Assembly: GCA_050123415.1 (NCBI GenBank)
Contig: JASFHE010000001.1
Coordinates: forward strand, 10,607 to 74,606
Direction: 5' to 3'
Source of the DNA: Desulfobacteraceae bacterium
GTDB lineage: Bacteria > Desulfobacterota > DSM-4660 > Desulfatiglandales > HGW-15
Length of the DNA: 64,000 bases
The notes beneath the pieces were generated by a model that did not search any database, had not been told where the DNA came from, and saw only the letters and a program-made list of their open reading frames with translations. Shown here piece after piece: positions 10,593 through 57,687 of this stretch (position 1 is the first letter of the stretch; the number at the start of each line of letters is the position of its first letter). The position numbers and the translations under genes are program-made.

Positions 10593-10619
10593 TTGTGTGG
10601 TATAGCAAAGGAAACGCCA

Positions 10620-26016: not shown

Positions 26017-26025
26017 GTGGGCGCC

Positions 26026-27184: not shown

Positions 27185-27185
27185 A

Positions 27186-27758
27186 ATGGCAATCAAGACA
27201 CCGAGGGAATATCGGCAGATGGAATTCAGGCAATTACTTTTCGAATTGGTATGCCTGCTCAAACCACATACTTATGTGGAGATTGGAGTAAAAGACGGGT
27301 GGACATTCAATAAGATTGCTCCACTTGTTGAACGCGCCGTTGGTGTGGATATTGTAGCGTCTCCAGTAGAAAGACTTCCACATGTTGAATTTATCCATGA
27401 TAATTCTGCCAGGTTTGCAAAAACATGGAAGGATCCAATCGATTTCCTTTTTATTGATGCATACCACGAATGTGAAGGAGTCTTACTTGATTTCTACCGT
27501 TTGCATCCTTTCGTTCGGCCAGAAACCGGAATGATTTTTCTCCATGATACATATCCTGTGAAACCGGAATTACTTCTTCCAGGTTATTGTCACAATGCAT
27601 GGAGAGCGGCAAAGACGATCCGGGAGAAGTTTGTTGAAGAATTTGAAATTGTTACACTCCCCGGTCCGTGGGCAGGCCTCTCAATACTTCGGAAATTGAA
27701 AGATGGCAGGCACGGGTGGATGGACAAAGATGCCTTCGCTGGAGGGAGAGGAAGATGA
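27186..27758 (+). CDS. class I SAM-dependent methyltransferase (Methyltransf_24-like)
   Basis: YVEIGVKDGWT (motif I), GVDI, and FLFIDAYHECEGVLLDF...GMIFLHD. Confidence 0.65.
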   Translation: MAIKTPREYRQMEFRQLLFELVCLLKPHTYVEIGVKDGWTFNKIAPLVERAVGVDIVASPVERLPHVEFIHDNSARFAKTWKDPIDFLFIDAYHECEGVLLDFYRLHPFVRPETGMIFLHDTYPVKPELLLPGYCHNAWRAAKTIREKFVEEFEIVTLPGPWAGLSILRKLKDGRHGWMDKDAFAGGRGR

Positions 27759-28897: not shown

Positions 28898-29510
28898 TAA
28901 AATGTATGGTGATAGTTTCTTCCATCGTAGGAAGAAGTTGATTTGGCGCGCTCCAATACTTTGTGAAATTATTAAAGAAATATTTCCTGGTGCAAAAAGT
29001 ATCATTGATGTTGGTTGCGCCATTGGAGAGTTTGTACATCAATTCCAAAAAATGGGGATATCTTCAGAAGGTATTGAGGGTAGTGAAAGTGCATTAAAGT
29101 ACGCATCTCCAGAGACCGGTATATCATTATGGGATATTAGAACACCATTACCTACCTCAAAAACCTGTATTGGTAAAACATGGAATTTGTGCATGTGTCT
29201 TGAAGTTGCAGAACATATCGAAGAGGAATATACAAATATATTTATTGATAATCTTTGCTTCTTATCAAATACTATTTTGATATCTGCTGCACCCCCAGGA
29301 CAACAAGGATACGGTCATTTTAATTGTCAAAAAATGGAATATTGGGAAATCAAATTCGGAATTAGAGACTACAGGAGAAGAGTTGAAAAAGAAAAGCGTT
29401 TTAAAAGTCTCCTTGAACCTTACAAGAGGAAGAAGGGTTTGAGTGGATATTATAACAATATCATGATTTATGAACATAATGATATTATATTGCATAAATA
29501 TTGGGGGTAA
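28884..29510 (+). CDS. class I SAM-dependent methyltransferase (Methyltransf_11/23-like)
   Basis: IIDVGCAIGEFV (motif I), GIEGSESA, and WNLCMCLEVAEHIEEEY. Confidence 0.7.
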   Translation: MRSVSKMYGDSFFHRRKKLIWRAPILCEIIKEIFPGAKSIIDVGCAIGEFVHQFQKMGISSEGIEGSESALKYASPETGISLWDIRTPLPTSKTCIGKTWNLCMCLEVAEHIEEEYTNIFIDNLCFLSNTILISAAPPGQQGYGHFNCQKMEYWEIKFGIRDYRRRVEKEKRFKSLLEPYKRKKGLSGYYNNIMIYEHNDIILHKYWG

Positions 29511-29511
29511 A

Positions 29512-30282
29512 ATGAATAAGGAAATATTTGATATTACTTGTACAGCAACACTTCGACCAGGACTCCTCGATAGAACACTTTCTTCATTTACAAAGAATTT
29601 ATTCAAGGAAAGGATATCTTGTGCAAGGCTTATTATTAATATTGATATGGCTGGTGCAGAAAAAAGCAGAGAAAAACAGAAATTGATTGATGTAATCAAT
29701 GTAATAGATAAATATCCTTTTTGCAGAAGAGAAATTAGGATTGGAAGAGAGCCGCATTTCCCAACAGCTTTTACTTGGTGTATGGATGAAGTCTACAGCA
29801 AGTATTTTTTTCATCTTGAGGAAGATTGGGAATTGCTTTTTCCTATCGATTTTGAAGCAATGTGGGGTTTACTTGACAAGTATGGAGACCTTGCCCACCT
29901 TCGATTATCGCAATTTACTTCCGAAGAGTTTCGGTGTAAAAATTGGAACAAGTTTCTTGTCTGGAACGGAGAATTCTTTGAAGTGCCGCTCGATGAAAAA
30001 TTGGTGATCGGATGGGCTGGCCATCCGTCGCTCAATCGATCATCTTTTATAAAAGACTGTCTACCATACATTGATCGAATGGCAAATCCCGAAAAGCAGA
30101 TCAAAGGCAAGATACATCCATGTATAACTCAATCAATTAATGCACACAGGTTTGGTTCATTTCATCCACAAAACTCGCCGAATTCAATTGTGGATATCGG
30201 GCGAGAGTGGATGGTCAATAATGGGTGGAGTAAAGCAGGCAATAAAGCCTGGTTCACCAATTGGGAAAGGAGTAATCAGTAA
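29512..30282 (+). CDS. hypothetical protein, possible GT-A-like enzyme
   Basis: ATG lies 1 nt after the upstream TAA. ITCTATLRPGLLDRTLSSF...ARLIINIDM...FFHLEEDWELLFP is loosely GT-A-like, with an acidic EED in place of DxD. Uncertain. Confidence 0.3.
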   Translation: MNKEIFDITCTATLRPGLLDRTLSSFTKNLFKERISCARLIINIDMAGAEKSREKQKLIDVINVIDKYPFCRREIRIGREPHFPTAFTWCMDEVYSKYFFHLEEDWELLFPIDFEAMWGLLDKYGDLAHLRLSQFTSEEFRCKNWNKFLVWNGEFFEVPLDEKLVIGWAGHPSLNRSSFIKDCLPYIDRMANPEKQIKGKIHPCITQSINAHRFGSFHPQNSPNSIVDIGREWMVNNGWSKAGNKAWFTNWERSNQ

Positions 30283-31322
30283 TGGATTTATCTATCATCA
30301 TTCCGTTTGTTGGAGAATACCCGCAAGTATTATGGACAATTCAATCGATTGCACAAGGCTTGATTGAAACGGAGATTGAGTTTGAAATTATTGCAGTGGA
30401 TAACTACTGCGAACAGGCTGTCCGTCAATGTAATGTGGCAACTCAGAAAGCAATTGACAAATTGAAACAGATTTACTTCAACGAAGGAAGAGAAATTGAG
30501 GCTTCCGATATGTTTGAAATCCATGACATGATCCCGCCAATTTATAAAAATAGAAGCGGAGAGGCAATCAAGGCTTGTGCGCGTGGGAATCCGTGGCTCC
30601 GTTATGTTGAATATCCTGACAGTTTATCACATTGGCAGGCAAAGCGTGTTGGTGTTCAAGAATCAGATGGAAAAGTTCTCCTGTTTGTTGATGCACATAC
30701 CATTCCGTCGGTTGATGCAATTGAAGAAATGTTTTTAGAATATACACGTGGATCATACAATGAAAATGGAACAATGCATTTACCTTTAACATACAAGATC
30801 CTTGAATGGCACCGATTGATCTACAAGTTTTTTGTTGAGAATGAATTTTTCTACAGTTATAAGTTTACTCCTTTCAGACAAGCCAAAGAGCCGTACGAGG
30901 TACAATGCATGTCAACTTGTGGCATGATGATCTCCAGAAGTATTTATGATCAACTCGGCGGCTGGCCAGCAACTCTTGGAGTTTATGGTGGCGGAGAAAA
31001 TTTCATGAATTATACGCTGGCAGTATGCGGTTTTAAGAAGTGGATATATCCGCATGGGACGCTTTTTCATCATGCGGATAGACGTGATTACCATTGGTAT
31101 GGTGATAATTTGATTTATAACAGGATGCTTGCTCATTATCTTTTCGGGGGTAAAGACTTGTTGGCGAAGTTTACTTCTATTTGTAAAGGTAGACCATCTA
31201 CTCTGCAAATGTTTGCAGAGATGGCCCTTAAGGAAGGTTTCGATCAACGGCAGCAAATCAAATCAATTCAAAAAATGACTATTGAGGAATGGGCGGAGAA
31301 ATGGAGAGAAAATGAACTTTAA
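30282..31322 (+). CDS. GT-A glycosyltransferase resembling polypeptide GalNAc-transferases (GT27/GT2, DxH type)
   Basis: - LSIIIPFVGEYPQVLWTIQSI and EIIAVDNYC form the GT-A N-terminal region.
- KVLLFVDAHTIP carries the D-x-H metal motif, as in LTFLDSHCE.
- GVYGGGENFMNYTLAVCGFKKWIYPHGTLFHHADR parallels the Gal/GalNAc-T motif [32 protein letters not shown]. Confidence 0.6.
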   Translation: MDLSIIIPFVGEYPQVLWTIQSIAQGLIETEIEFEIIAVDNYCEQAVRQCNVATQKAIDKLKQIYFNEGREIEASDMFEIHDMIPPIYKNRSGEAIKACARGNPWLRYVEYPDSLSHWQAKRVGVQESDGKVLLFVDAHTIPSVDAIEEMFLEYTRGSYNENGTMHLPLTYKILEWHRLIYKFFVENEFFYSYKFTPFRQAKEPYEVQCMSTCGMMISRSIYDQLGGWPATLGVYGGGENFMNYTLAVCGFKKWIYPHGTLFHHADRRDYHWYGDNLIYNRMLAHYLFGGKDLLAKFTSICKGRPSTLQMFAEMALKEGFDQRQQIKSIQKMTIEEWAEKWRENEL

Positions 31323-31731
31323 AGATTACCTTTGTAAATTCGAAAGACAAGTAATTTATACAGGGTTTATGATGGGTCGTTTCGGAGAACGCAAGGAAGA
31401 GATTGTGCCTCTCCGATATGGAAAATTATCAAAGTCGGAATTTGGAGAATTCATTGAAAAGACATTTGATGCTGGTGTTTTACTTGCGATCAATTATTAT
31501 GGACTTTTCAAACTATCGACTGAAATAATTAAAGCGGCTGAATCTGTGAGACATATTTTTGGAGAAATTCGATCCATAAAATCTCCAGTTGTTCATTTTA
31601 ATTCCATAAAAATTGAGGATGTTAAGGAACTTGCACCAGAGTTGTTTCCGGATTATCTAGAATTCAAGAAGTATATTGTGGAATTGAGATGGGGCCAGCG
31701 TGATGCCAGCCCAGATTTAAAGATTATTTAA
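31312..31731 (+). CDS. hypothetical protein (last gene of plus-strand arm)
   Basis: ATG 31312 overlaps the end of the upstream gene. No motif recognised. Confidence 0.45.
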   Translation: MNFKDYLCKFERQVIYTGFMMGRFGERKEEIVPLRYGKLSKSEFGEFIEKTFDAGVLLAINYYGLFKLSTEIIKAAESVRHIFGEIRSIKSPVVHFNSIKIEDVKELAPELFPDYLEFKKYIVELRWGQRDASPDLKII

Positions 31732-42743: not shown

Positions 42744-43076
42744 TTATTCTTTCTTGTAACGAAGATATTTCCTATTGTAGTGAAGATATTTCCACACTTT
42801 GTGGCTTTTTAAAATCATTGACCGTTCAACATTATTTGTAGAAATATCTCCTCTTTGTGCCATCAAATGGATTGCAAACATCAAATGTCCGAGTTCCGTT
42901 TCAAGATCTCCACGGTTGTTATACTCAATACCTTCGAAACTCGCGTGGTAACCGTGTCTCTGGATTTTACCGATTATTTGTAATACTTCACCGATTTCTT
43001 CCACGAGAAGTGAAAATCGTTCGTATTCTTCCGGAGTCATCGTGTCATAGCCAGATGGAGGTGGATGATTTTTCAT
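42744..43076 (-). CDS. MazG-like nucleoside triphosphate pyrophosphohydrolase
   Basis: LLVEEIGEVLQ and DLETELGHLMFAIHL form the E-x-x-E...E-x-x-D helices. ATG 43076 overlaps the stop of the upstream miniprotein. The track start is TTG 43112. Confidence 0.55.
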   Translation of the reverse strand: MKNHPPPSGYDTMTPEEYERFSLLVEEIGEVLQIIGKIQRHGYHASFEGIEYNNRGDLETELGHLMFAIHLMAQRGDISTNNVERSMILKSHKVWKYLHYNRKYLRYKKE

Positions 43077-43246
43077 TGAATTGTTTTTCCTTCTTTCACA
43101 ATAAGGTTGCAAAGTATCGCCTCATTTTCATCGATATTCCGGTCAAGATGACATTGACACCTCCAGTCTGGTTTTTCTTCTCCGACCGGGTTATTGCGGA
43201 ATAATGGTTCATCAAAACAACTGACATAGCAAACAGAGCAATGCAT
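43073..43246 (-). CDS. Cys-rich miniprotein (57 aa, below the track cutoff)
   Basis: ATG 43246 overlaps the dCMP deaminase stop (TGATG). Hand translation gives MHCSVCYVSCFDEPLFRNNPVGEEKPDWRCQCHLDRNIDENEAILCNLIVKEGKTIQ. Confidence 0.4.
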   Translation of the reverse strand: MHCSVCYVSCFDEPLFRNNPVGEEKPDWRCQCHLDRNIDENEAILCNLIVKEGKTIQ

Positions 43247-43791
43247 CACAACCTCCTATCGGAAGTAAAGGACATTATGATTCTTTTGATTTGGTTTATT
43301 TCGGAATGTGTGAAATGGATTTCTTCCGTTTCAAGTTTATATTCCTCTGCCTTCTTGAGCCAATATCTATCGCGTTCCTCGTCATCACTCTGGTAAATAA
43401 GTTCATAATATATTTTAGTGATTCCGACTCGTTTGATATTCTTTAGACAGTGAATGCATGGGAATAAAGTGCAGTAAAGAACAGAACCACGGAGACCGAT
43501 TCCGCCGAATTCTGCTATTTGGTTGATGGCGTTTTGTTCTGCATGAATCGATGGGCAGTCCTGGTACTTTTTAATTCCGGAATCATCTCTTCCAAGTTCT
43601 CTCCGCAAACAGAATTTGGGCCCTTTATCCGTGCATTGCGGCTCGCCAGGCATACTGCCATTATAGCCGGTTGCAACGACTCGCCTACCGGAAACAATTA
43701 CTGCTCCGGTAGGACGAGAGTTGCAACCGGACCTCACGGCGGCCAGTTTTGCCAACGCCATGAAGTACTTATTCCAAGGAAGCCGGTTCAT
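43246..43791 (-). CDS. dCMP deaminase
   Basis: WNKYFMALAKLAAVRSGC, HAEQNAI (H-A-E zinc/catalytic motif), and LFPCIHCLKNI (P-C-x-x-C). ATG 43791 overlaps the upstream TAA. Confidence 0.85.
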   Translation of the reverse strand: MNRLPWNKYFMALAKLAAVRSGCNSRPTGAVIVSGRRVVATGYNGSMPGEPQCTDKGPKFCLRRELGRDDSGIKKYQDCPSIHAEQNAINQIAEFGGIGLRGSVLYCTLFPCIHCLKNIKRVGITKIYYELIYQSDDEERDRYWLKKAEEYKLETEEIHFTHSEINQIKRIIMSFTSDRRL

Positions 43792-43997
43792 TAATCTGCC
43801 GCTCTGGAATACGGAAATTTCCGCATCCGCAGGGCACATTCAAAAGCATCGCGGAGTTTTTCGTCCGAAGCATGGAAGTTTTCTTTGATCCATTCAAGGA
43901 CGATTCTGGGCGACGAAGCATCTTGGGCCCGCAAGGTAAACATTTCCTCATCGTCTCCAATTTTAACCAATGTTGGACATGTTGATTTAAGTGCCAT
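43791..43997 (-). CDS. hypothetical protein
   Basis: 68-aa ORF with AAGGAG upstream. Confidence 0.45.
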   Translation of the reverse strand: MALKSTCPTLVKIGDDEEMFTLRAQDASSPRIVLEWIKENFHASDEKLRDAFECALRMRKFPYSRAAD

Positions 43998-44016: not shown

Positions 44017-44118
44017 GTTAAAGTATATCATATAAAGAACCCCTAATGATATACCAATCCATATTCCGGATGAAAAGCCTTGCCACCAAATTTTCCAAAA
44101 ATCTTTTTTGTTATTCAT
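44017..44118 (-). CDS. tiny membrane peptide (33 aa)
   Basis: The ATG overlaps the TS-like gene stop (ATGA). Sequence MNNKKDFWKIWWQGFSSGIWIGISLGVLYMIYFN. Confidence 0.25.
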
Positions 44119-44870
44119 TTAATTTCATCAATCCTTTTCTCCCTGGGATTCTTCCGAAGATAAGCTGCTACCGCTTCAATCTGATAATGATAACAGTGGA
44201 GTCCTTGGGAGTAAAACGAAAGTGGGCCGGGTTCAATACCGAGTTGGTCGGCGATGTATTGGTTAAGGAGTGTAAATCCTCCCATATTCTCCGGGAACCC
44301 AGCATATAAGTCCCATGAACGGTAAACAATGCCAAGAAGTACTTTCTTGGCTTTGACTTTGATATCAAGACCTCGAAGACATGGCGATGTCCTCCGCTCG
44401 GTTTCAGTCGTGTAAGGGATATCATAATTGAAGTTGATTCGTGGGTCGCCAACAGTAATAAAACAATGGTTGTTTCCGAATCCTTTGGTGGCAAGATGTC
44501 TAATGCACCAATCAAGCTGAGTGATCATTGCTCCGCTGAATGGATGTGCAAAGTGACCATTGATCCATGTAGAATACCTGTACTCCTCATTTGGATTGAG
44601 TTCAGGGTCCATAAGATAGTTGGTGAAGTACTTCTCGATTTCTTCATCCGTAGTGGTTGCAGGAATGCCGGTTGGCATGATTGGTGCAAGCGGACGGGTA
44701 TGCGGGTAGTGAATGAATCCAGCGGCGACCGGGAATTCTAATCTTCCGCCGCCCTTGCCTGAACCTTCATCAATAGCGATATTGTATCCGGTTTCGTAGC
44801 ATTTTGAAATCAATTGGAAGTATGCTTCATCCAACGTCATTGCTTCGACAAATGCTGGGACGAATTTCAT
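44115..44870 (-). CDS. divergent thymidylate synthase (ThyA)-fold pyrimidine C5 transferase
   Basis: TSPCLRGLD carries the catalytic Cys, as in the ThyA P-C-H motif. [26 protein letters not shown] parallels [30 protein letters not shown] parallels GD-x-H-x-Y. The Asn of PFN is retained as PEN. Confidence 0.6.
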   Translation of the reverse strand: [251 protein letters not shown]

Positions 44871-45236: not shown

Positions 45237-46412
45237 TTAATCATTGATTCCGAGTTCGTCGCAAATTTCATCCCGGAGGTCATCAATGCTGTCCTTGTCA
45301 TAATCATCGATATCAACGTCCAGGCCTTCTTCTTTGATTAACTTCTTCAGTTTAACCCAGGACATGTCGTCAATATCGTCCCGGTCGTAATCTGGCTCAT
45401 TGTCATCTCCGCCGCTATTTTCTTCCGCTTCTTCCAATCTCTCCTTCAGATAGGCAATAACCTTCTTCTTCTCCTTCTTAAACCTGCCTTTCTCATCGAA
45501 GTCAGCATCATCCAGGTCATTATCATCAACAAATTCCTCCAATTCGTCCATTTTATCGATGTCTTCCAATTCATCGATCAATTCCTGGATTTCTTCGACG
45601 GCATTGGCGACGCCATCTTCAGTGCCACCTTTCGGTTCGCCTACGTCGCCATCTTCGAGACAGGATGCATCTTTGATTTCGTCATAGGTTGCAATTACAA
45701 CAATTTCATCCAAGACGAAAGCGGCATCCAGGATATCGTCATCAATTTCATATTCCCGGTCATCAAAAGAGTGGCCAACAAAGGATGGAAAGTCATTTTT
45801 ACTTTTTGCAGGCTCGATGGTAAACGTAATGGACTTGCCATCTTCAGGATGGACAAAGTTAACTGTCTTTTCCTCTTTGCCATCCCGACTCGGTTTGCGA
45901 CTAATAGCCATCAATTGTTTTTCGAAGTAATACCATGAAACATCCCAAATTTGGACACCCTTCTTTGCTTCCTTCTTGTCGTCGTATGAAATAACGTTGT
46001 AAAGATTACGAGTCTTTGGAAAGTAATCTTTATACCGGTCATCATCCTTATCCCGAAGTTTTTGGCGATATTCGCAAATCGGACATTTTTTATCAAACAT
46101 TGCCGGGCAAATATATTGCTTATTGGCAGGGCCGACGTTCGTATGGACTTGGTATTCAAAAGTATAAGTCGGACTTCCTTCCTCAGTTGCAGGATCACGT
46201 TTGCCGGCCAGGTAGGGAATAATATCAATAATATGAGTCCCATCCTTCGGTTTCCAGATCGGAAGACTTTTGTCCTCCGGGAAGATATTCGAGCGGCGAC
46301 CTTTTGACTTTTGTTGACCGGTCTTTATCCGTTTCTGAAGACCATTACCTTTAAATAATCTTGCCTTCCGACTTTCTTTTGTTGATTTCTTTTCTTTGCG
46401 ATTTCTTTTCAT
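45237..46412 (-). CDS. ssDNA-binding protein, T4 gp32-like, with long acidic C-terminal tail
   Basis: VHTNVGPANKQYICPAMFDKKCPICEY has the H...C...C-x-x-C zinc site arrangement of gp32. KTRNLYNVISYDD...GVQIWDVSWYYFEKQL parallels gp32 KRKTSYWANILVVKD...KVFKYRFGKKIWDKI. The C-terminal 130 aa are Asp/Glu-rich. Confidence 0.55.
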   Translation of the reverse strand: MKRNRKEKKSTKESRKARLFKGNGLQKRIKTGQQKSKGRRSNIFPEDKSLPIWKPKDGTHIIDIIPYLAGKRDPATEEGSPTYTFEYQVHTNVGPANKQYICPAMFDKKCPICEYRQKLRDKDDDRYKDYFPKTRNLYNVISYDDKKEAKKGVQIWDVSWYYFEKQLMAISRKPSRDGKEEKTVNFVHPEDGKSITFTIEPAKSKNDFPSFVGHSFDDREYEIDDDILDAAFVLDEIVVIATYDEIKDASCLEDGDVGEPKGGTEDGVANAVEEIQELIDELEDIDKMDELEEFVDDNDLDDADFDEKGRFKKEKKKVIAYLKERLEEAEENSGGDDNEPDYDRDDIDDMSWVKLKKLIKEEGLDVDIDDYDKDSIDDLRDEICDELGIND

Positions 46413-48348: not shown

Positions 48349-51300
48349 TTATCTCCTTCTCTTCCTATTATATACTGTTTTATCAGAAAGTCCGGGCGCT
48401 AATATCCGCATTAATCGGAAGAAATTTTTCATCCCTGCGATATAAAATGATTTATTATCAGGATTATGGAATGTTGCTGCTGGATGTAAACACCAAGCAA
48501 TCCAACAACCATACTTTTCATTCCATGTAGTTCTGCCGCTCATTCCGGTAATACCAGATTTTATTCCTTCAAAGAATTGAAGAGAAGTGTTACCAAATGC
48601 AAGAATTAAAACGGGTTTAATTTGCTTTAATTCATCATTAAGATATCTGGAAGTACATTCTTGAATTTGCTTTGAGTTTGGTTTTCTACTTTTGCTTGGA
48701 TAGCATTTATTGATATTGGTTACATGAAATAATGATCGTTCATATCCTTTTCGATTTATATCTCCCCAGAGTAACCCTCCTGCCGGTGCTTCTTCGTAAA
48801 AACCCCAACCAAATTGGTCTTCCTTTGGACCAGGTGCTTCTCCAGCTAATACTATATTATATTTTCCTGGGCTGGGCATAACAGGTCGATGGCATTCATT
48901 TCTCAATTTGCAAGCAGTACAGGATTGTAGTTCATAATATCCATATTTCTTGAATCTTCTCCTTTTAACTGCATTGCCGCCAAGTTTTTTAAGTTCTTTT
49001 GTCTCCCCATTCAAAGTATTATCAAGTCGATCCAAACGGATACTACCTCCAAAGAGATTATAAAGATTTTTGTAATTCTCTTTTGGATTAGAAACCACTC
49101 TAAAATCAAAGTATTCACGCATTTCTTCGGTAATTGTTGTGTCAGTTGGATCATATGCCTTGATGGCATCGAGTTTCTTTCCCAGATCACCAGGATGTCT
49201 TTTTATCTTTTTAACTTTCATTTTATTTTCCTTATTAAAGAATTTAGTAATTCCAGGATCATCGTCTTTTATTCCACCACCTCTTGCTGCCTCAACTGCT
49301 TTGACAGGTCCAAGTCCTCCAACTTCTTTAAATGGAATAAAAAGCATATTATCACGCGCAACCCACTTGGTAGCATGGCTGATACCAATCTTCGGCAGTC
49401 GCATTACAAGTCCGAGCCGATATGCTTCTTCCACAATCTCTCTTTTTTTCTCTTTTGCTCCAAATGTTAATGATGCACAAATAAACTCTGTCGGATAGTA
49501 ATGCTTTATCCACATACACCACATTCCAAGGATTGCATATTCCACAGCATGGGCCCGGTTGAAACCATATCGTGACCACTTTTGCAAACCAGCCCAGAAT
49601 TGCGTTGCTTCACGTTCTGAGAATATCTTCGTTTTCCGGCAACCGCGCATGAACTTCCGTTCGAACTTCTTAAATTCTTTGGCATCACGTTTCTTACCAA
49701 TAATTTTTCGGATTTTATCTGCCGTTTCATATGGTAGACCAGCAACCTTATTAATTACTGCCATAATCTGCTCTTGAAAGACAAGAAGTCCGTAGGTATC
49801 AGAAGTTAATTCTTCATAAACATGGTGCATTTTGTCCCAGTGTTCTCCACGTTTTCTCTTTATATAATTATCGGTCATTCCCGATTCAGTTGGGCCGGGT
49901 CGTACGAGAGAGATTGCATGGGCTATATGATTAAACTCTTCCACACCCATGTCTTTGATCAAATTTGTCATTGCCCAAGTATTTATTTGAAATGCTCCTA
50001 CCGTATTGCCCTCACTTATCTCCTTTAGCACTTGTGGGTTTTCAAGTTCAAGGAGATCAAGTTCGATGTTTTTGTTGTGGTTCTGTTTAATGAGTTCGAT
50101 GGCATGGGATAGAATAGAGAGGAGTTTTAATCCAAGGGAGTCAAGTTTCATCAAACCGACAAATTCTGTATCATCCTTCTCCCAATTAATGTTTCTTCCT
50201 TTTTTGGTATCGATAAGAACACAACGACCAGACTTGCCGATTTCTTGCATGGAAACAATGATCGCCGCGGCGTGCTTTCCATAGTTCTTTACCTGCCCTG
50301 CAAGTTGTTTTGCATACTTAATTATCCTCGGATAATTCTCTGCAAACTCTTGACAGACCTGGTATTCATCAATAGCGTTTTGAATCTTTTCCGCTTCGGT
50401 ACCAGGGAACTTATCATCAATCATTTTTGTAAAAGAGTTCGCTTCACCTTCGCTAACCTCAAAAACTCTGGCGACGTCTTTGACTGCCGCTTTTGCTTTC
50501 ATTCTATTGAAAGAAGAAACACCGGAAATATTTCCTTCCCCATATAATTCTTCCAAATGTTCCTTAATAAGGTGGCGCTTTGTGTCTTCAAAATCAATAT
50601 CAATATCCGGATAGTCAATACGATCTTTGTTAATAAATCGATCAAAAATCAAATTGTGTTTTATTGGATCAACAGAAGTAATTCCGAGGAGATAAGCCAT
50701 TAAACTTCCGCCAACAGAACCGCGGCCGGGTCCAATTAAGATTCCTTGTTTCTTGCACCAACTGCATAGTTCCCATACAATTAGAAAGTATCGTGTAAAC
50801 TTTTTCTCCACGATAAGGTCGTATTCCATCTTTAATCGCTCTTTGTATTCAGTATTATGGGAAACACTTCGATGGAATCGATCCCTATAACCGTCCACGC
50901 AAAGTTGCCAAAGTGTTTTGTTTTCTTTGTCTGGATCAATACCTGGGACATGTGGAAGTTTAATGTCTCGTTTTGGGATTCTGTAGTCCGAACATTTTTC
51001 TGCAATCTCTAAAGTATTAATAAGGAATTTTTCATTATATATTCCAACCGCTTTCATTGCTCGGATCATTTCGTTAGTTTTACGAAGATGAAGTCCGTGG
51101 AATCCAAAACTCCATCTTTTAGGATCATTCCATGTTACCTTACGCTGAATTGCGAGAAGTACATCATGGACTTTCCAATCAGACCGATCAATATAATGGC
51201 AGTCATTAGTGACGATTACTTTTACTCTTGTTTCTTTGGCAAGTTTCAGGATTCTTTTGTTATGCTCCGCCTGGATTTTAATATCATGAGGCATTAATTC

Positions 51301-51783
51301 CAGATATAGATCATCTTTCATTCTTTTATGGAGTTTATGAAAGAAATCAATACCGCCTTCAACATTAATGAAACTCATAACACAAGCAGTTCCAATAACC
51401 AGTCCGCGTCTGTATTTCATCAAAGTTTTGAAATCAATTCTTGGTTTGTAGTGATAGCCCTCCAGATTTGCTATGGTTAGCATTTTGCAGAGATTTCGAA
51501 ATCCGGTGTTATTTTTTATCCATAAAGAGACGTGACCTCGGACCGCTTTCTTCTTCCATTCATTGACCAGGTAACCTTCGCAACCGAGAATTGGTTTGAT
51601 TCCTGCCTGGTCACATGCTTTCTGGAATTTAATAAGTCCATCGATATTACCGTGATCAGTACAGGCCAAGAATTTCTGACCATTAGCCACGGCCTTCTCC
51701 GCATATTTGGACGCAGAGCCGAATCCATCAAGTTGAGAATATTCGGAGTGGAGATGTAAATGGCAAAAGTCTTCTTTATTCAT
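48349..51783 (-). CDS. dnaE: DNA polymerase III alpha subunit (C-family) fused to a C-terminal uracil-DNA glycosylase family 4-like domain
   Basis: - Polymerase part: PHP domain HLHLHSEYSQLDG, GPGRGSVGGSLMAYLLGITSVDPI...DIDIDF, RPGP, and FNRAHAVEYAILGMW.
- C-terminal about 200 aa (nt 48352-48960): CTACKLRNEC, LAGEAPGPKED, NKC-x16-C, and CLHPAAT.
- Start: GGAG lies 9 nt upstream of ATG 51783; the track start is 51831. Confidence 0.85.
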   Translation of the reverse strand: MNKEDFCHLHLHSEYSQLDGFGSASKYAEKAVANGQKFLACTDHGNIDGLIKFQKACDQAGIKPILGCEGYLVNEWKKKAVRGHVSLWIKNNTGFRNLCKMLTIANLEGYHYKPRIDFKTLMKYRRGLVIGTACVMSFINVEGGIDFFHKLHKRMKDDLYLELMPHDIKIQAEHNKRILKLAKETRVKVIVTNDCHYIDRSDWKVHDVLLAIQRKVTWNDPKRWSFGFHGLHLRKTNEMIRAMKAVGIYNEKFLINTLEIAEKCSDYRIPKRDIKLPHVPGIDPDKENKTLWQLCVDGYRDRFHRSVSHNTEYKERLKMEYDLIVEKKFTRYFLIVWELCSWCKKQGILIGPGRGSVGGSLMAYLLGITSVDPIKHNLIFDRFINKDRIDYPDIDIDFEDTKRHLIKEHLEELYGEGNISGVSSFNRMKAKAAVKDVARVFEVSEGEANSFTKMIDDKFPGTEAEKIQNAIDEYQVCQEFAENYPRIIKYAKQLAGQVKNYGKHAAAIIVSMQEIGKSGRCVLIDTKKGRNINWEKDDTEFVGLMKLDSLGLKLLSILSHAIELIKQNHNKNIELDLLELENPQVLKEISEGNTVGAFQINTWAMTNLIKDMGVEEFNHIAHAISLVRPGPTESGMTDNYIKRKRGEHWDKMHHVYEELTSDTYGLLVFQEQIMAVINKVAGLPYETADKIRKIIGKKRDAKEFKKFERKFMRGCRKTKIFSEREATQFWAGLQKWSRYGFNRAHAVEYAILGMWCMWIKHYYPTEFICASLTFGAKEKKREIVEEAYRLGLVMRLPKIGISHATKWVARDNMLFIPFKEVGGLGPVKAVEAARGGGIKDDDPGITKFFNKENKMKVKKIKRHPGDLGKKLDAIKAYDPTDTTITEEMREYFDFRVVSNPKENYKNLYNLFGGSIRLDRLDNTLNGETKELKKLGGNAVKRRRFKKYGYYELQSCTACKLRNECHRPVMPSPGKYNIVLAGEAPGPKEDQFGWGFYEEAPAGGLLWGDINRKGYERSLFHVTNINKCYPSKSRKPNSKQIQECTSRYLNDELKQIKPVLILAFGNTSLQFFEGIKSGITGMSGRTTWNEKYGCWIAWCLHPAATFHNPDNKSFYIAGMKNFFRLMRILAPGLSDKTVYNRKRRR

Positions 51784-52003
51784 ATTTTTTTTCACTCCAT
51801 AATAAACAGGGGCCTTGTCCTGAACCAACAATATACCATCCTATTTTTTTATGCCTTCCGATGCCAATAAGTGGCTCGGAGTTATCAACTACTTCCTTGC
51901 ATTCTTTTGGCATTATGTCATAAAAATGTTTCCATAATTCAGAAGGAAGCATTATTTTTTCAAGTTCTAAATATCCAGTTTCTTTTGTTCTCATAAGAAG
52001 CAT
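51776..52003 (-). CDS. hypothetical protein
   Basis: 75-aa ORF. Confidence 0.4.
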   Translation of the reverse strand: MLLMRTKETGYLELEKIMLPSELWKHFYDIMPKECKEVVDNSEPLIGIGRHKKIGWYIVGSGQGPCLLWSEKKYE

Positions 52004-52927: not shown

Positions 52928-53170
52928 TCACGGTTTTAAAATATAAAGTTTTTCGGCAATATCGAGTAGGCGATCAAATTGCTTCTCGGTCACCTTCATT
53001 TTCTCTCCATGCAGGCGAAACTTTTGGATCAAGTTGTTAACCAGGTCTACCTCAAATTGTGTCATCATTACCGTGTGAGGGTGGAGGTCCCTCAGAGTGA
53101 TGATAAGGTCAGCAACTTCCTCCTGATCAATATTTTTGTCTTTGTCTTCTTTTGGGTAATATGCTGCCAT
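52928..53170 (-). CDS. hypothetical protein
   Basis: 80-aa ORF. Confidence 0.4.
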   Translation of the reverse strand: MAAYYPKEDKDKNIDQEEVADLIITLRDLHPHTVMMTQFEVDLVNNLIQKFRLHGEKMKVTEKQFDRLLDIAEKLYILKP

Positions 53171-53612
53171 GTTTTTTACTCCTTATTAAATTGTTAATTG
53201 TTACGCGCCGGCACATTACCAGCCCCTTTATTATATTGTTCTTCCATGCAATATCTCCTACTTTCCGAAACCGATTGCGTTTGTAGAATTTAATTGCCTG
53301 GTAATTATCTGCTTTGACGTTTAGGAAGACAGTTCTACCGTGGCAAAACTTCTCTATAATTTGGTGAGCGTAACCGCTCTTTGGGGATGTATTGATTAAT
53401 TGGTGGAGCATGTAAGAACCTTTCGGAGCAAGTACTGTTCCGAGTCTTACCGCCTTGACGTATTTCTGGAAGACTATGACCACGCCTTTTTCAAATATAA
53501 CCAAGTCATTGTCGATCATACGCTGGAGATAATCTTTACGAATATGAGAAAAGATATCCCTTAATTCGGTCATCCTTTTAAAAATAAAATCCAGATCTTT
53601 CTCCGTTGCCAT
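53127..53612 (-). CDS. GNAT-family N-acetyltransferase
   Basis: GYAHQIIEKFCH...VKADNYQAIKFYKRNRFRKVG has the N-x-x-A-I-x-F-Y-x-x-x-G-F-like motif A/B. ATG 53612 lies 1 nt after the MTase stop. Confidence 0.5.
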   Translation of the reverse strand: MATEKDLDFIFKRMTELRDIFSHIRKDYLQRMIDNDLVIFEKGVVIVFQKYVKAVRLGTVLAPKGSYMLHQLINTSPKSGYAHQIIEKFCHGRTVFLNVKADNYQAIKFYKRNRFRKVGDIAWKNNIIKGLVMCRRVTINNLIRSKKHGSILPKRRQRQKY

Positions 53613-53613
53613 T

Positions 53614-54636
53614 TTAAACTTTTTGGAAGACATATATTTTCTCCATCTTTTTCGGTGTGTCTTCACAACCAAAAAGACTATTCATCGGAAGCGCCAATAT
53701 CTCTTTTAGGTTTCCGAATATTTTTGTGCCAAATCGTTCCGCATCTCTACCACAAGGATAATTTTTACCTTTAATATTTATATCTGCAATATTTATTATA
53801 AAATAACCACCAGATTTTAACAGTTTGTAGCAGTTCTTTATGGTCTTGCGAAGGAAGAAGATTCTCCACATGTCGTAGGTTGGGTATTTTTTAAAAGATT
53901 GCTCATTGTCTTCCGAGTAAAGTTCTTTGCAGAAGTAGGGAGGAGAAGAAAAAGCAAGATCGATAGTGCTATGGAGTTCGTTTGGACAAAATGCTTCAGC
54001 AATAGTTTTGTGTATAACCGCTTTATTCTTTGCATGGAGAAATCCTATCATATTATTGAGGCCATCAACGGCCGGGGTTGAAGGGTCAACTCCAATATAT
54101 TTCGAAGTCCTGGCATACTTGCTTGCAAGAAATCCAGAAAGTCTCCCGCCGAACCCAGCGCAAAAATCATAGGCGACCGAACCGTTTCGGAGATACCGTT
54201 CATATATTGCTTTTGCTGCGGCTGGCCTAAAGTTTGTTGCAAATTGATGCCATTCTATTCGTGACAAGTACGAGCGGACCGATGTGTTGGTTATCTTTCC
54301 ACTGTACTGGTATGCCATTCTTATTGATTTTCGGAGAAGTCTTCTTTTACTGAATGCATCAACTGGACTTCCCATCGAGCCGAATACCTTCACGGTGTAT
54401 TGGTGTGGCATAAAGTGTTTGCAGAATTCAATGCCAGCAAGGCCGGTTCCAACTGAGTAGAAAAGTCTGCCTTTATAGTCATAGCGTTTTGTGATGACTG
54501 GCTTTGATTCCAGGAGTTTTTTAAAGTCTACCAACAATTCGTGAGGAGTCAAAGAAACAAAAGGGAAGCCGACGCACTTATAATAATTGTATGCTTCCTT
54601 TAATATCCAGTGGTCAACGTTTTTTACTTCAATCAT
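53614..54636 (-). CDS. DNA methyltransferase (N6-adenine or N4-cytosine, SPPY type)
   Basis: YDFCAGFGGR (motif I, F-x-G-x-G) and AFSSPPYF (motif IV, S-P-P-Y). Confidence 0.6.
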   Translation of the reverse strand: MIEVKNVDHWILKEAYNYYKCVGFPFVSLTPHELLVDFKKLLESKPVITKRYDYKGRLFYSVGTGLAGIEFCKHFMPHQYTVKVFGSMGSPVDAFSKRRLLRKSIRMAYQYSGKITNTSVRSYLSRIEWHQFATNFRPAAAKAIYERYLRNGSVAYDFCAGFGGRLSGFLASKYARTSKYIGVDPSTPAVDGLNNMIGFLHAKNKAVIHKTIAEAFCPNELHSTIDLAFSSPPYFCKELYSEDNEQSFKKYPTYDMWRIFFLRKTIKNCYKLLKSGGYFIINIADINIKGKNYPCGRDAERFGTKIFGNLKEILALPMNSLFGCEDTPKKMEKIYVFQKV

Positions 54637-54830
54637 GATAGAATATCCTTATATTTTTGCAATAGTACTTTCCGCCTATGTCCATTTTTAAATTTTATTT
54701 TAATTCCACAATTCGGACAATATTTATAACTGGATAAAATTTTGTCACATGTACATTTAGGACAATTAAACCACTCGGTATATAATTCGTCATATCCAGT
54801 ACTATCATCAATATCTATTTTTATTATCAT
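54633..54830 (-). CDS. Zn-ribbon protein
   Basis: CPKCTC...CPNCG. ATGA overlaps on both sides. Confidence 0.45.
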   Translation of the reverse strand: MIIKIDIDDSTGYDELYTEWFNCPKCTCDKILSSYKYCPNCGIKIKFKNGHRRKVLLQKYKDILS

Positions 54831-55210
54831 TTCGGCTTCTCCATTCCAAATAATGATTCTGGTTTTATGTTCATCCTGCGATACAATTCAATGGTTTGGC
54901 GTCCATGTTTGCTATTACAATTGAATGCACGGCAAATCTTCTGGAGTAAAATTGGTTCTTGTTTCGGTTTTTTCTTTGGGTACCGAACCCATGGAGCATT
55001 TTTAGTGCCGACAAATTTCCGATAAATCAGAAGCAAAAGTTTGTTTGGGATTCGACCAACGAATTGATTGCATATAATGGAGATAACAAAATCATCCGTT
55101 AATGACATTAGACGGTTGGCCATAAAAGGAGAGGTTAAATCCATATCGTCGTCGGATTCAAATATCTCCTTAAATTCAGCGAATATCGGATTACCCTTTT
55201 TGTTTATCAT
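54827..55210 (-). CDS. possible clamp loader small subunit (gp62-like, by synteny)
   Basis: No strong motif. The gene order clamp, clamp loader large subunit, (HNH), this gene mirrors T4 genes 45-44-62. Confidence 0.25.
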   Translation of the reverse strand: MINKKGNPIFAEFKEIFESDDDMDLTSPFMANRLMSLTDDFVISIICNQFVGRIPNKLLLLIYRKFVGTKNAPWVRYPKKKPKQEPILLQKICRAFNCNSKHGRQTIELYRRMNIKPESLFGMEKPK

Positions 55211-55211
55211 A

Positions 55212-55700
55212 TTAGTTATTCCATCTTTTATTATTAATTATTAACCCAACATGACCGGTTGAAACCATAAATACTTTCCCTAACTCCTTTTGTGTATACT
55301 TACCAGTCTTATATAAATTCCTTATCCATTTTACTTTCTTTTTGGTTAGTTTGGATTGGGAATTATTCTCACCATAACTATTCCTTAAACCAATTTTAAA
55401 AGCGTGAATTTTATTATTTGAAGATGTTACCCACTCCAAGTTTCCTATCCAATTAAACGACTTATCTCCATCTTTATGATTACATTCATGAATTGGAGAT
55501 GGTTTTGTCGGACCGAAGTATTCCAGGACGAGTCTATGAATATAAAATGTTTTCTTTTTACCAAATTTTGATAATGTTATTATTTTATAATTCCATTTAT
55601 TTTTGCTTTGTTTTAGAATTATTTTGTTTCTGATAGACCTAATCCTACCAAAATTCGATACTTTGTAATGCCAACCCGATATTTTCTTCCATTGTTCCAT
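55212..55700 (-). mobile_element. free-standing HNH homing endonuclease (NUMOD4 + HNH_3-like)
   Basis: MEQWKKISGWHYKVSNFGRIRS (NUMOD4-like N-terminus) and IHRLVLEYFG...CNHKDGDKSFNWIGNLEWVTSSNNKIHA (HNH). Inserted between two clamp loader genes. Confidence 0.8.
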
Positions 55701-55703
55701 ATT

Positions 55704-56630
55704 TTAAAAAGTAATATTTTTAATGTCCATATTTTGCATAATTTCAATTATACATGCTGTTGCATTGATTTCTCTATCAATAACCGAATTATCTTTTAGC
55801 ATATACTCCGCAACGGTGATTGCTGATGCCGCTGCCGCTTGATTATCTTTCAATGCTGGAATAAATTCATCAATCAAATACTTCCATAGCCACCTGAATG
55901 AAACCGTACCAGCCCATTTTTCTCTTATTGCTCCAATCTTGCCAAGTTCAAGTAAAGACTTCAGCAAACCCAGATCAATATCACCTTCAAGCAAGTGGTC
56001 GAGGTTCATTTTACCACCGATAGAGCATGACTGGAGATTGTTCAATACGGTTCTGATATCAGGAAAGAACTTATCAACGATGGTTTGGACATCCTCCTTT
56101 GAATGCTTTACTCCTTCAGATTTCAAAATCTTGGCGCAGTACCGGACGATTTTCTTTTTCGGAATTTGTTCAAACTGGAAATGTTGACACCTGGAATATA
56201 TTGCTTCATCGATTGCGCCGAAGTCGTTTGCTGTAAAGATAAAGCGGCAGTTTTTGACGTACCGTTCGATGGTATTCTTTAGACCACGCTGGGCGTCACG
56301 GGTTAAACCGTCCGCTTCATCGAAGAAAACAATATTTGTCTTGTCTTTCTTCCGGCGCATTGAACCAGCGAAATGTCTTACTTTCCCTTTAATGACACCG
56401 ACACCACGATCCTCGCTTGAACCATTCAATTCCAATTTAGAACTTGCACAATGATCAATCAAAATCATAGCAAGAGTTGTCTTCCCGCTACCTGGTGGCC
56501 CAGTAAAGAGTAAATGTGGAATCTGTTCTTCCTCAATATATTCTTCCATTTTTGCTCGGCATCGATCATCGAGAGAAAGAGCCGACAAATCCTTCTGCCG
56601 ATACTTTTCGTACCAAATCAGTTCTTTCAT
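55704..56630 (-). CDS. clamp loader large subunit, RFC / T4 gp44-like AAA+ ATPase
   Basis: LWYEKYRQKDL, LLFTGPPGSGKTTLA (Walker A), VFFDEADGLT (Walker B), SRC motif IYSRCQHFQF. Confidence 0.9.
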   Translation of the reverse strand: MKELIWYEKYRQKDLSALSLDDRCRAKMEEYIEEEQIPHLLFTGPPGSGKTTLAMILIDHCASSKLELNGSSEDRGVGVIKGKVRHFAGSMRRKKDKTNIVFFDEADGLTRDAQRGLKNTIERYVKNCRFIFTANDFGAIDEAIYSRCQHFQFEQIPKKKIVRYCAKILKSEGVKHSKEDVQTIVDKFFPDIRTVLNNLQSCSIGGKMNLDHLLEGDIDLGLLKSLLELGKIGAIREKWAGTVSFRWLWKYLIDEFIPALKDNQAAAASAITVAEYMLKDNSVIDREINATACIIEIMQNMDIKNITF

Positions 56631-56890
56631 TTCTTATTCCTTTCTAACGGAAATGCATTTGGATAATTGATCATTCTTGGAGGACCATCAACGAAAGGAA
56701 CCGTTTTATCTCCAGATTCATATCTATTGTATAAAACAGCATGAACACCAAACATTAATGCTTCCTGCTTTTCTTTTGATATGTCGTGGCAGTTATCTGT
56801 AATTTCAACAACTATATCTAAAAGTTGCTTACCGTTCAGTTTATGAATTTGCAAAACTGCTTCGGCAATTATTTTGATGTTTTTGATCAT
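56627..56890 (-). CDS. hypothetical protein
   Basis: 87-aa ORF with overlapping start and stop codons on both sides. Confidence 0.45.
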   Translation of the reverse strand: MIKNIKIIAEAVLQIHKLNGKQLLDIVVEITDNCHDISKEKQEALMFGVHAVLYNRYESGDKTVPFVDGPPRMINYPNAFPLERNKK

Positions 56891-57687
56891 TACTCTTCCT
56901 CCTCGGTCTCTCCTTCAGCGGACGGGAGTAATGCCCAAATGGTTTCCGAGTCAGTAATAAGTACCGGCTTAGAATCACCAATCCATAGTTGCGGTGGGTT
57001 TTCTTCATCGATTTCGATAGTGGAAAGAACCTTGTCAAGAAAATCTCCATTGACCTTAAGGATGATATTCTCTCCATTGCCGTCAACGTCTTCGACCTCA
57101 CCATCAATAGTAATGGAAAATTGATGCTCAATATCAGAGCCGATGGTTATAGTGATTTCCGACCCGTCGTATGCAACCTCGGTTGTTTTTGACTTCGAAA
57201 GCCCAACATAGGAATGGAAGTCCTGTATGACTTCACGGGTCAAAACAACTTTGTATTCCTGCATACCGCGGAACAATTCCGCTGTGTCTTCTTCTGGGTC
57301 ATCTTTATCCAGGACGGTAGCAATCATTGACGGATCGGATAGAAGATACTTCATCTGGCGCCGCTTGTCTTTGCGTATAAAGATCAATTTGTTTTCGCTC
57401 AATGAAGTATTGATCACCGGCTCCTTGATTGTTCCAAAGAACTTAATCAACGAATCGATGCCACCGAGACCGAGTTCAAGCTCGTTGCTTTTCTGCTTTG
57501 AGATGGTAGCAGAAGTCACAACTACCAGATTGTTTGACAAGTCAACCGCTTCAATATAACATTTCTTACCATTGACCACTGCCACAGCGTCTTCAATGAT
57601 GCCGCCCAAGTGAACACGCTTCAATAGTGCAATGAAGTTTTTTGTGCGAATGGTTAGCTTGCCGGCACTCTTATTCCGACGTTTCAT
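56890..57687 (-). CDS. sliding clamp (T4 gp45-like, putative)
   Basis: Lies upstream of the clamp loader. LTIRTKNFIALLKRV...GIDSLIKFFG...KYLLSDPSMIATV loosely parallels gp45 LSKDTTALLKNFATI...LNGFLGIL...FWPAADPSTVVAP. Acidic C-terminus. ATG 57687 is preferred over the track start 57735. Confidence 0.5.
   Translation of the reverse strand: MKRRNKSAGKLTIRTKNFIALLKRVHLGGIIEDAVAVVNGKKCYIEAVDLSNNLVVVTSATISKQKSNELELGLGGIDSLIKFFGTIKEPVINTSLSENKLIFIRKDKRRQMKYLLSDPSMIATVLDKDDPEEDTAELFRGMQEYKVVLTREVIQDFHSYVGLSKSKTTEVAYDGSEITITIGSDIEHQFSITIDGEVEDVDGNGENIILKVNGDFLDKVLSTIEIDEENPPQLWIGDSKPVLITDSETIWALLPSAEGETEEEE

Follow-up and report, generated by a model that had tools for sequence, protein, structure and literature searches.

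A phage DnaE-type DNA polymerase carrying a C-terminal family-4-like uracil-DNA glycosylase domain

Positions 10,607 to 74,606 of contig JASFHE010000001.1 (assembly GCA_050123415.1, deposited under the name Desulfobacteraceae bacterium) form the 64,000 nucleotide stretch of DNA that was analysed here and is called the window in the following. On its minus strand lies a single long open reading frame (ORF), in its longest form 48349..51831, in which a DnaE-type polymerase core of family C, its PHP site intact, is joined in one polypeptide through a flexible linker and a connector with an F-x-F peptide to a family-4-like uracil-DNA glycosylase (UDG). The gene is best explained as coding for the replicative polymerase of a tailed phage that inhabits wetland and salt-marsh sediments and is not in culture. 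A preliminary description, made from the sequence alone, had proposed a C-family polymerase fused to a family-4-like UDG, and this proposal is borne out by the Pfam domains, by the match to the UDG structure 1UI0 and by the fold found with Foldseek.

Domain organization and authenticity of the fusion

The ATG from which residues are numbered here (Table 1) is preceded by GGAG 11 nt upstream; the public gene call of the fusion chose the GTG four codons upstream of this ATG (1148 aa). A Pfam scan of the 1144 residue protein found four domains, with a gathering cut-off of 24.3 bits for the UDG domain. PHP, palm and fingers are present as first described, but the DnaE part is shorter than the roughly 940 residues assigned to it: homology to bacterial DnaE stops at about residue 838, the post-fingers region (residues 719-838) being the last homologous stretch, and is followed by a linker (839-856) and a helical connector (857-950). 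The PHP fold reaches to about residue 280, beyond the Pfam span of residues 8-141. All nine candidate metal ligands of the PHP site (H10, H12, D19, H44, E69, H84, C134, D194 and H196) are invariant or nearly so in an alignment of 83 sequences, in which the catalytic aspartates of the palm, D393, D395 and D548, are invariant. DnaE enzymes whose PHP site is intact carry an exonuclease function, and the Pol III alpha subunits of Taq and M. tuberculosis proofread via this site. The conserved ligands suggest that a proofreading exonuclease is built into the PHP domain also here; no DnaQ-like gene was seen in the 64-kb window.

An AlphaFold2 model of the full-length protein, built on 83 homologues, reached a predicted local distance difference test score (pLDDT) of 89.1 and a predicted template modelling score (pTM) of 0.77, with disorder limited to the stretch 839-856 and the nine C-terminal residues; for residues 857-1144 (288 aa), modelled separately, the scores were 94.3 and 0.88, respectively. 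In Foldseek the first 860-900 or so residues superpose on Pol III alpha of Taq, E. coli and M. tuberculosis with E-values of about 1e-55 to 1e-60. With these bacterial enzymes (Taq 2HPI/3E0D/4IQJ, E. coli 2HNH/5FKV, M. tuberculosis 5LEW/7PU7) the protein has PHP, palm, thumb, fingers and duplex-binding domains as well as the intact PHP metal site in common, at 26-30% identity over some 860-900 columns. The oligonucleotide/oligosaccharide-binding (OB) fold and the tau-binding C-terminal domain of bacterial DnaE1 are absent, as the alignment to full-length Taq and E. coli alpha ends at about 860-900 columns, and the connector and UDG domain (857-1144) stand in their place. Foldseek found no structural counterpart of the connector in the PDB. 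The UDG domain model superposes on 1UI0/1UI1 with a template modelling (TM) score of 0.78-0.83 and a root-mean-square deviation of 2.1-2.5 Å, the values from the full-length model being 0.81-0.83 and 2.1-2.2 Å; next in rank for residues 857-1144 are UdgX, the UDG of the phiLo A-family polymerase (9QHS), family 5 and TDG/SMUG.

Table 1. Features of the window discussed in the text (positions are those of the window; residues are those of the polymerase-UDG protein).
Feature	Position	Strand	Residues	Remarks
DnaE-UDG fusion gene	48349..51783	-	1-1144	1144 aa from ATG at 51783; stop TAA 48349-48351
Alternative starts of the fusion gene	GTG 51795, TTG 51831	-		in frame; 1148 aa from GTG
PHP domain	51361..51762	-	8-141	PF02811, 117.7 bits vs cut-off 26.4
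Pol III alpha palm/NTPase domain	50131..50916	-	290-551	PF07733, 255 bits, E=1e-75
Pol III alpha fingers domain	49630..50121	-	555-718	PF17657, 145 bits
Post-fingers region	49270..49629	-	719-838	superposes on Pol III alpha duplex-binding (beta-binding) domain
Disordered linker	49216..49269	-	839-856	pLDDT <50
Helical connector	48934..49215	-	857-950	pLDDT 85-97 when modelled with UDG domain
YFDFRV	49096..49113	-	891-896	candidate clamp-binding peptide; F892 and F894 invariant (83/83)
Family-4-like UDG domain	48379..48933	-	951-1135	PF03167 at 975-1112, 61.8 bits vs 24.3
First Fe-S cysteine pair, C955-T-A-C958	48910..48921	-	955-958	aligned to 1UI0; each Cys 118/118
UDG motif A, GEAPGPKED	48817..48843	-	981-989	aligned to 1UI0
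F995	48799..48801	-	995	aligned to Phe of 'GRPFVG' in 1UI0; kept 107/118
NINKC	48703..48717	-	1023-1027	N1023 candidate uracil-recognition Asn, 112/118; C1027 third Fe-S Cys, 118/118
C1043	48655..48657	-	1043	fourth Fe-S Cys, 118/118; 113/113 wider representatives
UDG motif B, HPAA	48475..48486	-	1100-1103	H1100 kept 112/118
C-terminal tail TVYNRKRRR	48352..48378	-	1136-1144	basic, disordered, no conservation in family
Candidate gp45-like sliding clamp	56890..57687	-		265 aa from 57687; PHROG 'DNA polymerase processivity factor', window protein E=1.4e-4
gp44-like AAA+ clamp-loader large subunit	55704..56630	-		
NUMOD4/HNH homing-endonuclease-like gene	55212-55700	-		
Candidate gp62-like clamp-loader small subunit	54827..55210	-		weak match
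N6/N4 DNA methyltransferase	53614-54636	-		
ORF without family match	53127-54636 region	-		181 aa; overlaps the methyltransferase gene
gp32-like single-stranded DNA-binding protein	45237-46412	-		
Very diverged thymidylate-synthase homologue	44115-44870	-		dUMP-centred metabolism; best PDB E=2e-4
dCMP deaminase	43246-43839	-		dUMP-centred nucleotide metabolism
MazG-type NTP pyrophosphatase	42744-43112	-		dUMP-centred nucleotide metabolism
Sugar/modification run	24526-31731	+		
Strong GT4 glycosyltransferase	2349-3608	+		near head genes

A large phage clade has kept the fusion. The best 120 matches from a search of 5.8 billion proteins include more than 115 clusters, which share the same four Pfam domains at 44-86% identity and come from several data sources, on contigs of up to 97 kb. 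An identical 50-kb contig was found in one wetland run at 14.5x, and a variant of about 95-97% identity, covering nearly the whole gene and differing by substitutions only, without insertions or deletions (indels), in a salt-marsh run of another study. The preliminary description had itself named a sequencing frameshift that joins two genes as a possible source of the fusion, and a chimeric assembly could likewise have joined DnaE to a neighbouring UDG gene. One relative, L003, shows DnaE and UDG as two overlapping genes, as such an artefact would have it, but this case is itself a 1-nt shift at an A-run in a region that is continuous in all other members. With an indel-free ORF in two independent metagenomes, more than 115 independent clusters and cultured phages that carry the fused ORF (see below), the probability of an artefact is negligible.

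The preliminary description had also raised the question whether relatives encode the two parts separately. No genuine split form, with DnaE and UDG as separate genes, was found among the relatives examined, although relatives without any UDG exist. The sole apparent one, P0089 on L003 (L003:3860-3920), was rejected because of the 1-nt frameshift at CCAAAACAA, the A-run mentioned above; the shift stems from a faulty assembly or from a disruption that occurred very recently. Two further candidates were rejected: the UDG of MT836940.1 (L002) is a stand-alone gene beside a DnaB-like helicase, with no DnaE, and that of MW202554.1 (L005) is an N-terminal domain on a gene annotated only as 'DNA polymerase'.

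The glycosylase domain and its fate in the family

Over the C-terminal 243 residues the protein matches the family-4 UDG of T. thermophilus (1UI0) at E=1.1e-19 and about 28% identity; the similarity to the UDG superfamily, the lack of which would have spoken against the fusion, is thus seen in sequence profile (61.8 bits), pairwise match and fold (TM 0.78-0.83) alike. The hallmarks noticed beforehand, namely CTAC, GEAPGPKED, the spacing of 16 residues between C1027 and C1043 (the latter within QEC) and HPAA, are all present and align with 1UI0. Alignment of the catalytic residues to family-4 UDG, as suggested in the preliminary description, placed motifs A and B, the pocket Phe and the Asn on their 1UI0 equivalents, and all are largely kept in the clade. 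Four-cysteine site, motif A GE(A/G)PGxxED, motif B HP(A/S), pocket Phe and Asn, and fold are shared with the family-4 enzymes of known structure (1UI0/1UI1; T. maritima 1L9G/1VK2; S. tokodaii 4ZBX). UDGa is, however, a stand-alone repair enzyme of about 190-200 aa, whereas the window domain is fused to the polymerase behind a 95-aa helical connector. The four cysteines align with those of 1UI0 as for a [4Fe-4S] site, and an iron-sulphur (Fe-S) cluster is predicted.

Conservation within the close clade was counted in 118 aligned family members. In addition to the residues in Table 1, P984 is kept in 115, G985 in 110, E988 in 116 and D989 in 107 of these sequences, and E982 in 95, with Q in 20. 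F995 corresponds to the Phe that stacks on the uracil. In all, 80-98% of the clade sequences, with overall identities as low as 44%, retain the residues for catalysis and for the uracil pocket. An enzyme selected for its chemistry would be expected to show such a pattern, a decayed scaffold would not, and the window domain probably has UDG activity.

In the same 20 of 118 sequences GQDPG replaces GEAPG, the exchange E982Q always occurring together with A983D. The motif of family-1 UDG is GQDPYH, which the variant resembles; it may represent an alternative catalytic arrangement.

A conserved uracil pocket could also belong to a sensor, which would bind template uracil and stall the polymerase without excision. 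Archaeal family-B polymerases have a read-ahead uracil pocket, of which the domain would be a fused analogue. It is located where bacterial DnaE has its single-strand-binding OB fold, and the UDG of SP15-like A-family polymerases (PolA) contacts the template ahead of the active site. A pure sensor needs, however, none of the water-activating and leaving-group residues (E982/D989, H1100), which are conserved along with the pocket. UdgX, which binds uracil-DNA covalently through a crosslinking histidine in a loop of its own (H109 in M. smegmatis), is the sole known precedent within the UDG superfamily, and by whole-domain similarity the window domain is far closer to UDGa (E=1e-19 vs about 2e-5 for UdgX; 80-84 vs 66 bits; higher Foldseek rank). 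A sensor is accordingly regarded as very improbable, and an active glycosylase as the preferred reading of the clade.

The wider family was covered by a profile search of 1.84 billion representative proteins, one per 50%-identity cluster, from which the top 150 clusters, all above 847 bits, were analysed. The UDG domain is present in 113 and absent in 37 of them. Among the 113 UDG-bearing representatives the third cysteine is kept in 112 and the fourth in every one, while H1100 and N1023 are each kept in just 91. By a strict test the UDG is fully intact in 54, or in about 72, 73 with the window protein included, if Leu is allowed at position 995, so that the catalytic set is retained in roughly half to two-thirds. 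At least 20 are clearly degenerate, with for example 'NENANWDEK' for motif A and Ser at the Asn and His positions. Intact, degenerate and absent states are interspersed by polymerase-core identity: the UDG-less P0101 is closest to the intact P0040 (64% core identity), and the UDG-less P0208 to the intact P0149 (60%), indicating that the UDG domain and its chemistry were lost repeatedly. Genuine absence was confirmed on the contigs of L004, where the polymerase ends in '...YFDFRVTKGVPPKRYKRK*' and is followed by syntenic genes, and of P0208, which lies inside a contig of 43 kb and is not followed by a UDG.

One or more inteins (PF14890) occur in many relatives, such as P0041, P0085, P0088, P0094, P0143 (1898 aa), P0168 (2788 aa) and others; the copy in the window has none.

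Among deposited phages, a full-length tblastn search returned 1452 DnaE-bearing records, none of which covered more than 73% of the query, but a search with the C-terminal part alone recovered fusions in Nickievirus. The DnaE of these cultured phages (nickie, ZY21, phiK7B1 and Nican01) has the architecture of the window protein, with PHP, Pol III alpha, fingers, helix-hairpin-helix (HhH) and C-terminal UDG, and is annotated only as 'DNA polymerase III subunit alpha'. That of Pseudomonas phage nickie (ATW57997.1; 1130 aa) is just 27% identical to the window protein; its UDG domain scores 47 bits, above the Pfam cut-off. The Nickievirus UDG is degenerate, with a broken motif A, loss of the third Cys and NPA for motif B, and looks catalytically dead. 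No F-D-F motif was seen at the place equivalent to that of the window peptide. In nickie (L001, MG018927.1, 1-2513) cobT- and cobS-like genes lie directly upstream of dnaE-UDG, an unusual neighbourhood for a replicase.

The two functions considered in the preliminary description, uracil recognition or a derived DNA-binding role, thus correspond to a real variation of the family: the window clade looks intact, while sister lineages and Nickievirus are degenerate. This variation gives some weight to the alternative that the replicase uses the UDG fold mainly for DNA binding or processivity, as a module without catalysis in which any glycosylase activity would be vestigial. Fold and Fe-S cysteines are kept (in 112-113 of 113) while the catalytic residues have decayed in many lineages, the degenerate Nickievirus domain still scores above the Pfam cut-off, and the UDG replaces the OB fold of DnaE, itself a DNA-binding domain. 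The inactivated UDG of N4-like PolA and D4/E4 of the poxvirus polymerase processivity factor offer parallels, and a processivity factor hypothesis has been published for the UDG domains of PolA and for vaccinia D4 (PMC3201878). A pure clamp or scaffold would not need, however, the catalytic and pocket residues retained in 80-98% of the 118 clade sequences; for processivity the phage already has a candidate clamp and a clamp loader (see below), and the UDG-less relatives show that the domain is no obligatory structural part. We consider a mainly non-catalytic module rather unlikely.

Another reading starts from the cysteines, since the third and fourth are kept even where motifs A and B have decayed. 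The [4Fe-4S] cluster, above glycosylase chemistry, would then be the most strongly selected feature, a structural or redox-sensitive control element of the replisome beside the clamp peptide, with uracil excision ancestral or optional. Eukaryotic B-family replicative polymerases carry Fe-S clusters in their C-terminal domains, and we know of no other bacterial-type replicative polymerase polypeptide with an Fe-S domain. If true, the C-family replicase would have gained an Fe-S domain independently and in parallel to the eukaryotic B-family polymerases. This reading is put forward with considerable doubt; an active, selected glycosylase in the window clade is preferred also over a control element.

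Candidate clamp-binding peptide and genomic setting

The connector contains a peptide, YFDFRV in the window and [L/Y]-F-D-F-R-[I/V] as family consensus, just after the duplex-binding domain, which is also the location of the clamp-binding motif of bacterial DnaE. The peptide resembles LDFLF, the motif within the extreme C-terminal EKASLDFLFG by which T4 gp43 binds gp45 (PMC6212786). UDG-less relatives end in [Y/F]FxF plus 0-12 residues, for example 'FFDFDLY*', 'YFNFKIY*', 'YFSFNI*' and 'YFQFSFK*'. As the F-x-F is invariant, terminal in UDG-less relatives and similar to the T4 tail, we infer that it was ancestrally a C-terminal clamp-binding tail; connector and UDG would have been added after it and would have turned the terminal clamp motif into an internal one. 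In E. coli alpha, too, the clamp motif is internal, with the OB and tau-binding domains located behind it.

A candidate for the matching clamp is encoded just upstream of the clamp-loader ORF, and 9 out of 10 members of its family match PHROG processivity-factor families (best E=5e-7). The order of genes 45-44-62 in T4 is mirrored by the clamp and loader genes of the window (Table 1). A homing-endonuclease-like gene is inserted between the gp44-like and the gp62-like gene. Whereas bacterial DnaE works with beta and the tau complex, the partners in the window are of T4 type (gp45/44/62-like), and the replisome would be a mosaic of a bacterial-type C-family polymerase and T4-type accessory proteins.

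The window as a whole looks siphovirus-type, with a structural module on the plus strand (scaffold, major head protein, a 1031-aa tape measure and tail proteins) and the replication module on the minus strand. At about 32 kb, where plus-strand (structural and modification) genes give way to minus-strand (replication) genes, both GC skew and AT skew reverse their sign. Around the polymerase lie genes for a Toprim primase, a DnaB-like helicase, a gp32-like single-stranded DNA-binding protein, RecA/UvsX, a flap endonuclease (FEN), Mre11/Rad50, a PDDEXK nuclease and a DNA methyltransferase. The gp32-like protein combines a zinc-finger-like stretch rich in Cys (CPAMFDKKCPIC) with a long acidic tail at its C-terminus; in L004 a syntenic homologue of it is found downstream of the UDG-less polymerase. 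The N6/N4 methyltransferase gene is located just upstream of the polymerase block, and the 181-aa ORF that overlaps it looks, by eye, like a GNAT acetyltransferase.

Genes for a MazG-type pyrophosphatase, a dCMP deaminase and a very diverged thymidylate synthase (TS) homologue are possible sources of deoxyuridine (dU) pressure. In the TS homologue the catalytic Cys and the Asn that specifies dUMP are present; among the NCBIfam models an archaeal-type TS matches it best, at 66 bits, a score far under the cut-off. The protein could be a true thymidylate synthase or, of consequence for a possible thymidine modification in this phage, a dUMP hydroxymethylase. Transferases are encoded in a run of genes on the plus strand (a weak GT4-like protein, a hexapeptide acyltransferase, a clear and a weak S-adenosylmethionine (SAM) methyltransferase, a group-1 glycosyltransferase and a GT2 protein) and by the separate GT4 gene (Table 1). 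They could act on virion proteins, in the hypermodification of DNA or on the host surface.

These genes are what an alternative role of the fused domain would build on, that of a glycosylase for a phage with modified thymidine (T), for instance derived from 5-hydroxymethyluracil (5-hmU), which tells stray dU from the modified base or has a shifted substrate range, as has been proposed for the SPO1-/SP15-like phages. A dUMP hydroxymethylase with adjacent dCMP deaminase and MazG, glycosyl-, methyl- and acyl-transferases at 24.5-31.7 kb and 2.3-3.6 kb, and the presence of the same gene trio in SP15-like PolA-UDG phages, which have hypermodified T, would all fit. On the other side, neither a 5-hmU DNA kinase nor a gene of the aGPT-Pplase type was detected in the window, the TS-like protein may be a thymidylate synthase of the ordinary kind, proteins or polysaccharides may be the substrates of the transferase cluster, and the uracil-pocket residues look standard for family 4. 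We judge this role improbable and prefer a glycosylase directed at uracil itself.

Proposed function and relation to known systems

The function that we favour, and hold to be fairly probable, is that of a clamp-tethered, active UDG which removes dU during replication, combined with a second, non-catalytic role of the fold. The UDG domain would be an active, uracil-specific glycosylase, and the F-x-F peptide would bind the gp45-like clamp of the phage, so that the UDG would hang from the polymerase beside the clamp and travel with the fork. Deoxyuridine would be removed either from the template, in front of the advancing polymerase, or from the newly made duplex in the wake of the clamp, and the phage DNA would be kept free of uracil, which may stem from dUTP of the phage's own dCMP deaminase/TS-like pathway or from host defences of the dCTP deaminase type. 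The fold may in addition serve DNA binding, processivity or architecture; such a non-catalytic role would explain why the domain and its Fe-S cysteines persist in sister lineages that have lost the catalytic residues.

Several points weigh against this proposal. Glycosylase activity is, for any C-family fusion, read from sequence and predicted structure. The UDG domain stays below the curated NCBIfam cut-offs (TIGR00758, 80.2 bits vs 125.3; NF040953, 83.8 vs 250), although these are its best-scoring models, and it is for this reason called family-4-like and not an equivalog. Close relatives have repeatedly lost the UDG or let it decay, as has Nickievirus, so that the domain is dispensable and its conserved role need not be catalytic. 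To our knowledge C-family polymerases do not bypass abasic sites, so that excision on the template side could be harmful. No apurinic/apyrimidinic (AP) endonuclease, Pol X or ligase was found within the 64 kb of the window, beyond which lie about 19 kb of the roughly 83-kb genome. The clamp assignment, finally, draws its whole backing from weak PHROG profile matches, the candidate having neither a PDB sequence or PDB profile match nor a phage tblastn match.

The closest analogues of the fusion are found in A-family polymerases (SPO1- and SP15-like phages such as YerA41 and phiLo, whose UDG motifs are conserved, and N4-like phages, whose UDG is inactivated). There too, a UDG is covalently linked to the replicative polymerase of a phage, intact and degenerate lineages occur, and deaminase, NTP pyrophosphatase and TS homologue are encoded in the genomes, as in the window. 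The UDG domain of phiLo (9QHS) matches the C-terminal region of the window protein at E=7e-5 both in Foldseek and in phmmer. In the SP15-like enzymes the N-terminal UDG is active and excises template dU ahead of synthesis, processivity is provided by insertions instead of a clamp, Pol X and ligase are recruited, and a dCTP deaminase, a dUTP-processing enzyme and a TS homologue are encoded in every one of the genomes, while N4-like fusions have dead UDG domains (bioRxiv 10.1101/2025.03.26.645540). The same preprint makes no mention of C-family polymerases or Fe-S clusters (bioRxiv 10.1101/2025.03.26.645540). In contrast, the window protein has a C-family core with its UDG at the C-terminus, after a clamp-binding-like tail, and neither Pol X nor ligase is seen beside it. 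The different polymerase family and the opposite terminus indicate that the fusion arose independently, as an analogue and not as a member of the A-family fusions.

A further parallel is poxvirus D4/E4 (with A20/A22 and E9/F8), in which a UDG is likewise part of a viral replicase, travels along with it and has a partly architectural role, but which acts in trans, is of family-1 type without Fe-S and belongs to the B-family polymerase of a eukaryotic virus (PMC3201878, PMC4889955). In a survey from 2011 the C-family polymerases of phages were noted to diverge beyond the fingers, where they 'may include different structural domains' (PMC3201878). In the literature searched, which did not cover the Nickievirus papers, no description of a DnaE/Pol III-UDG fusion was found; we found no paper on the C-family version, which as far as this literature goes is new, such fusions having been described solely for A-family polymerases. 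The architecture as such is already visible in precomputed Pfam annotations and in the deposited Nickievirus genomes, where the gene is labelled DnaE.

The case shows how a C-terminal clamp-binding tail can become internal once a new domain is added behind it. With polymerase, PHP proofreading and base-excision activity, as predicted, in a single chain, the protein may also be of use as a reagent. The family brings its own natural controls, in the form of closely related polymerases with an intact, a decayed or no UDG, together with the cultured Nickievirus. UDGs are now seen attached to viral replicases of three unrelated families, as an N-terminal fusion in family A, in trans in the poxviruses of family B and as a C-terminal fusion in family C, and this recurrence suggests that viruses are generally under pressure to link the surveillance of uracil to the replication fork.

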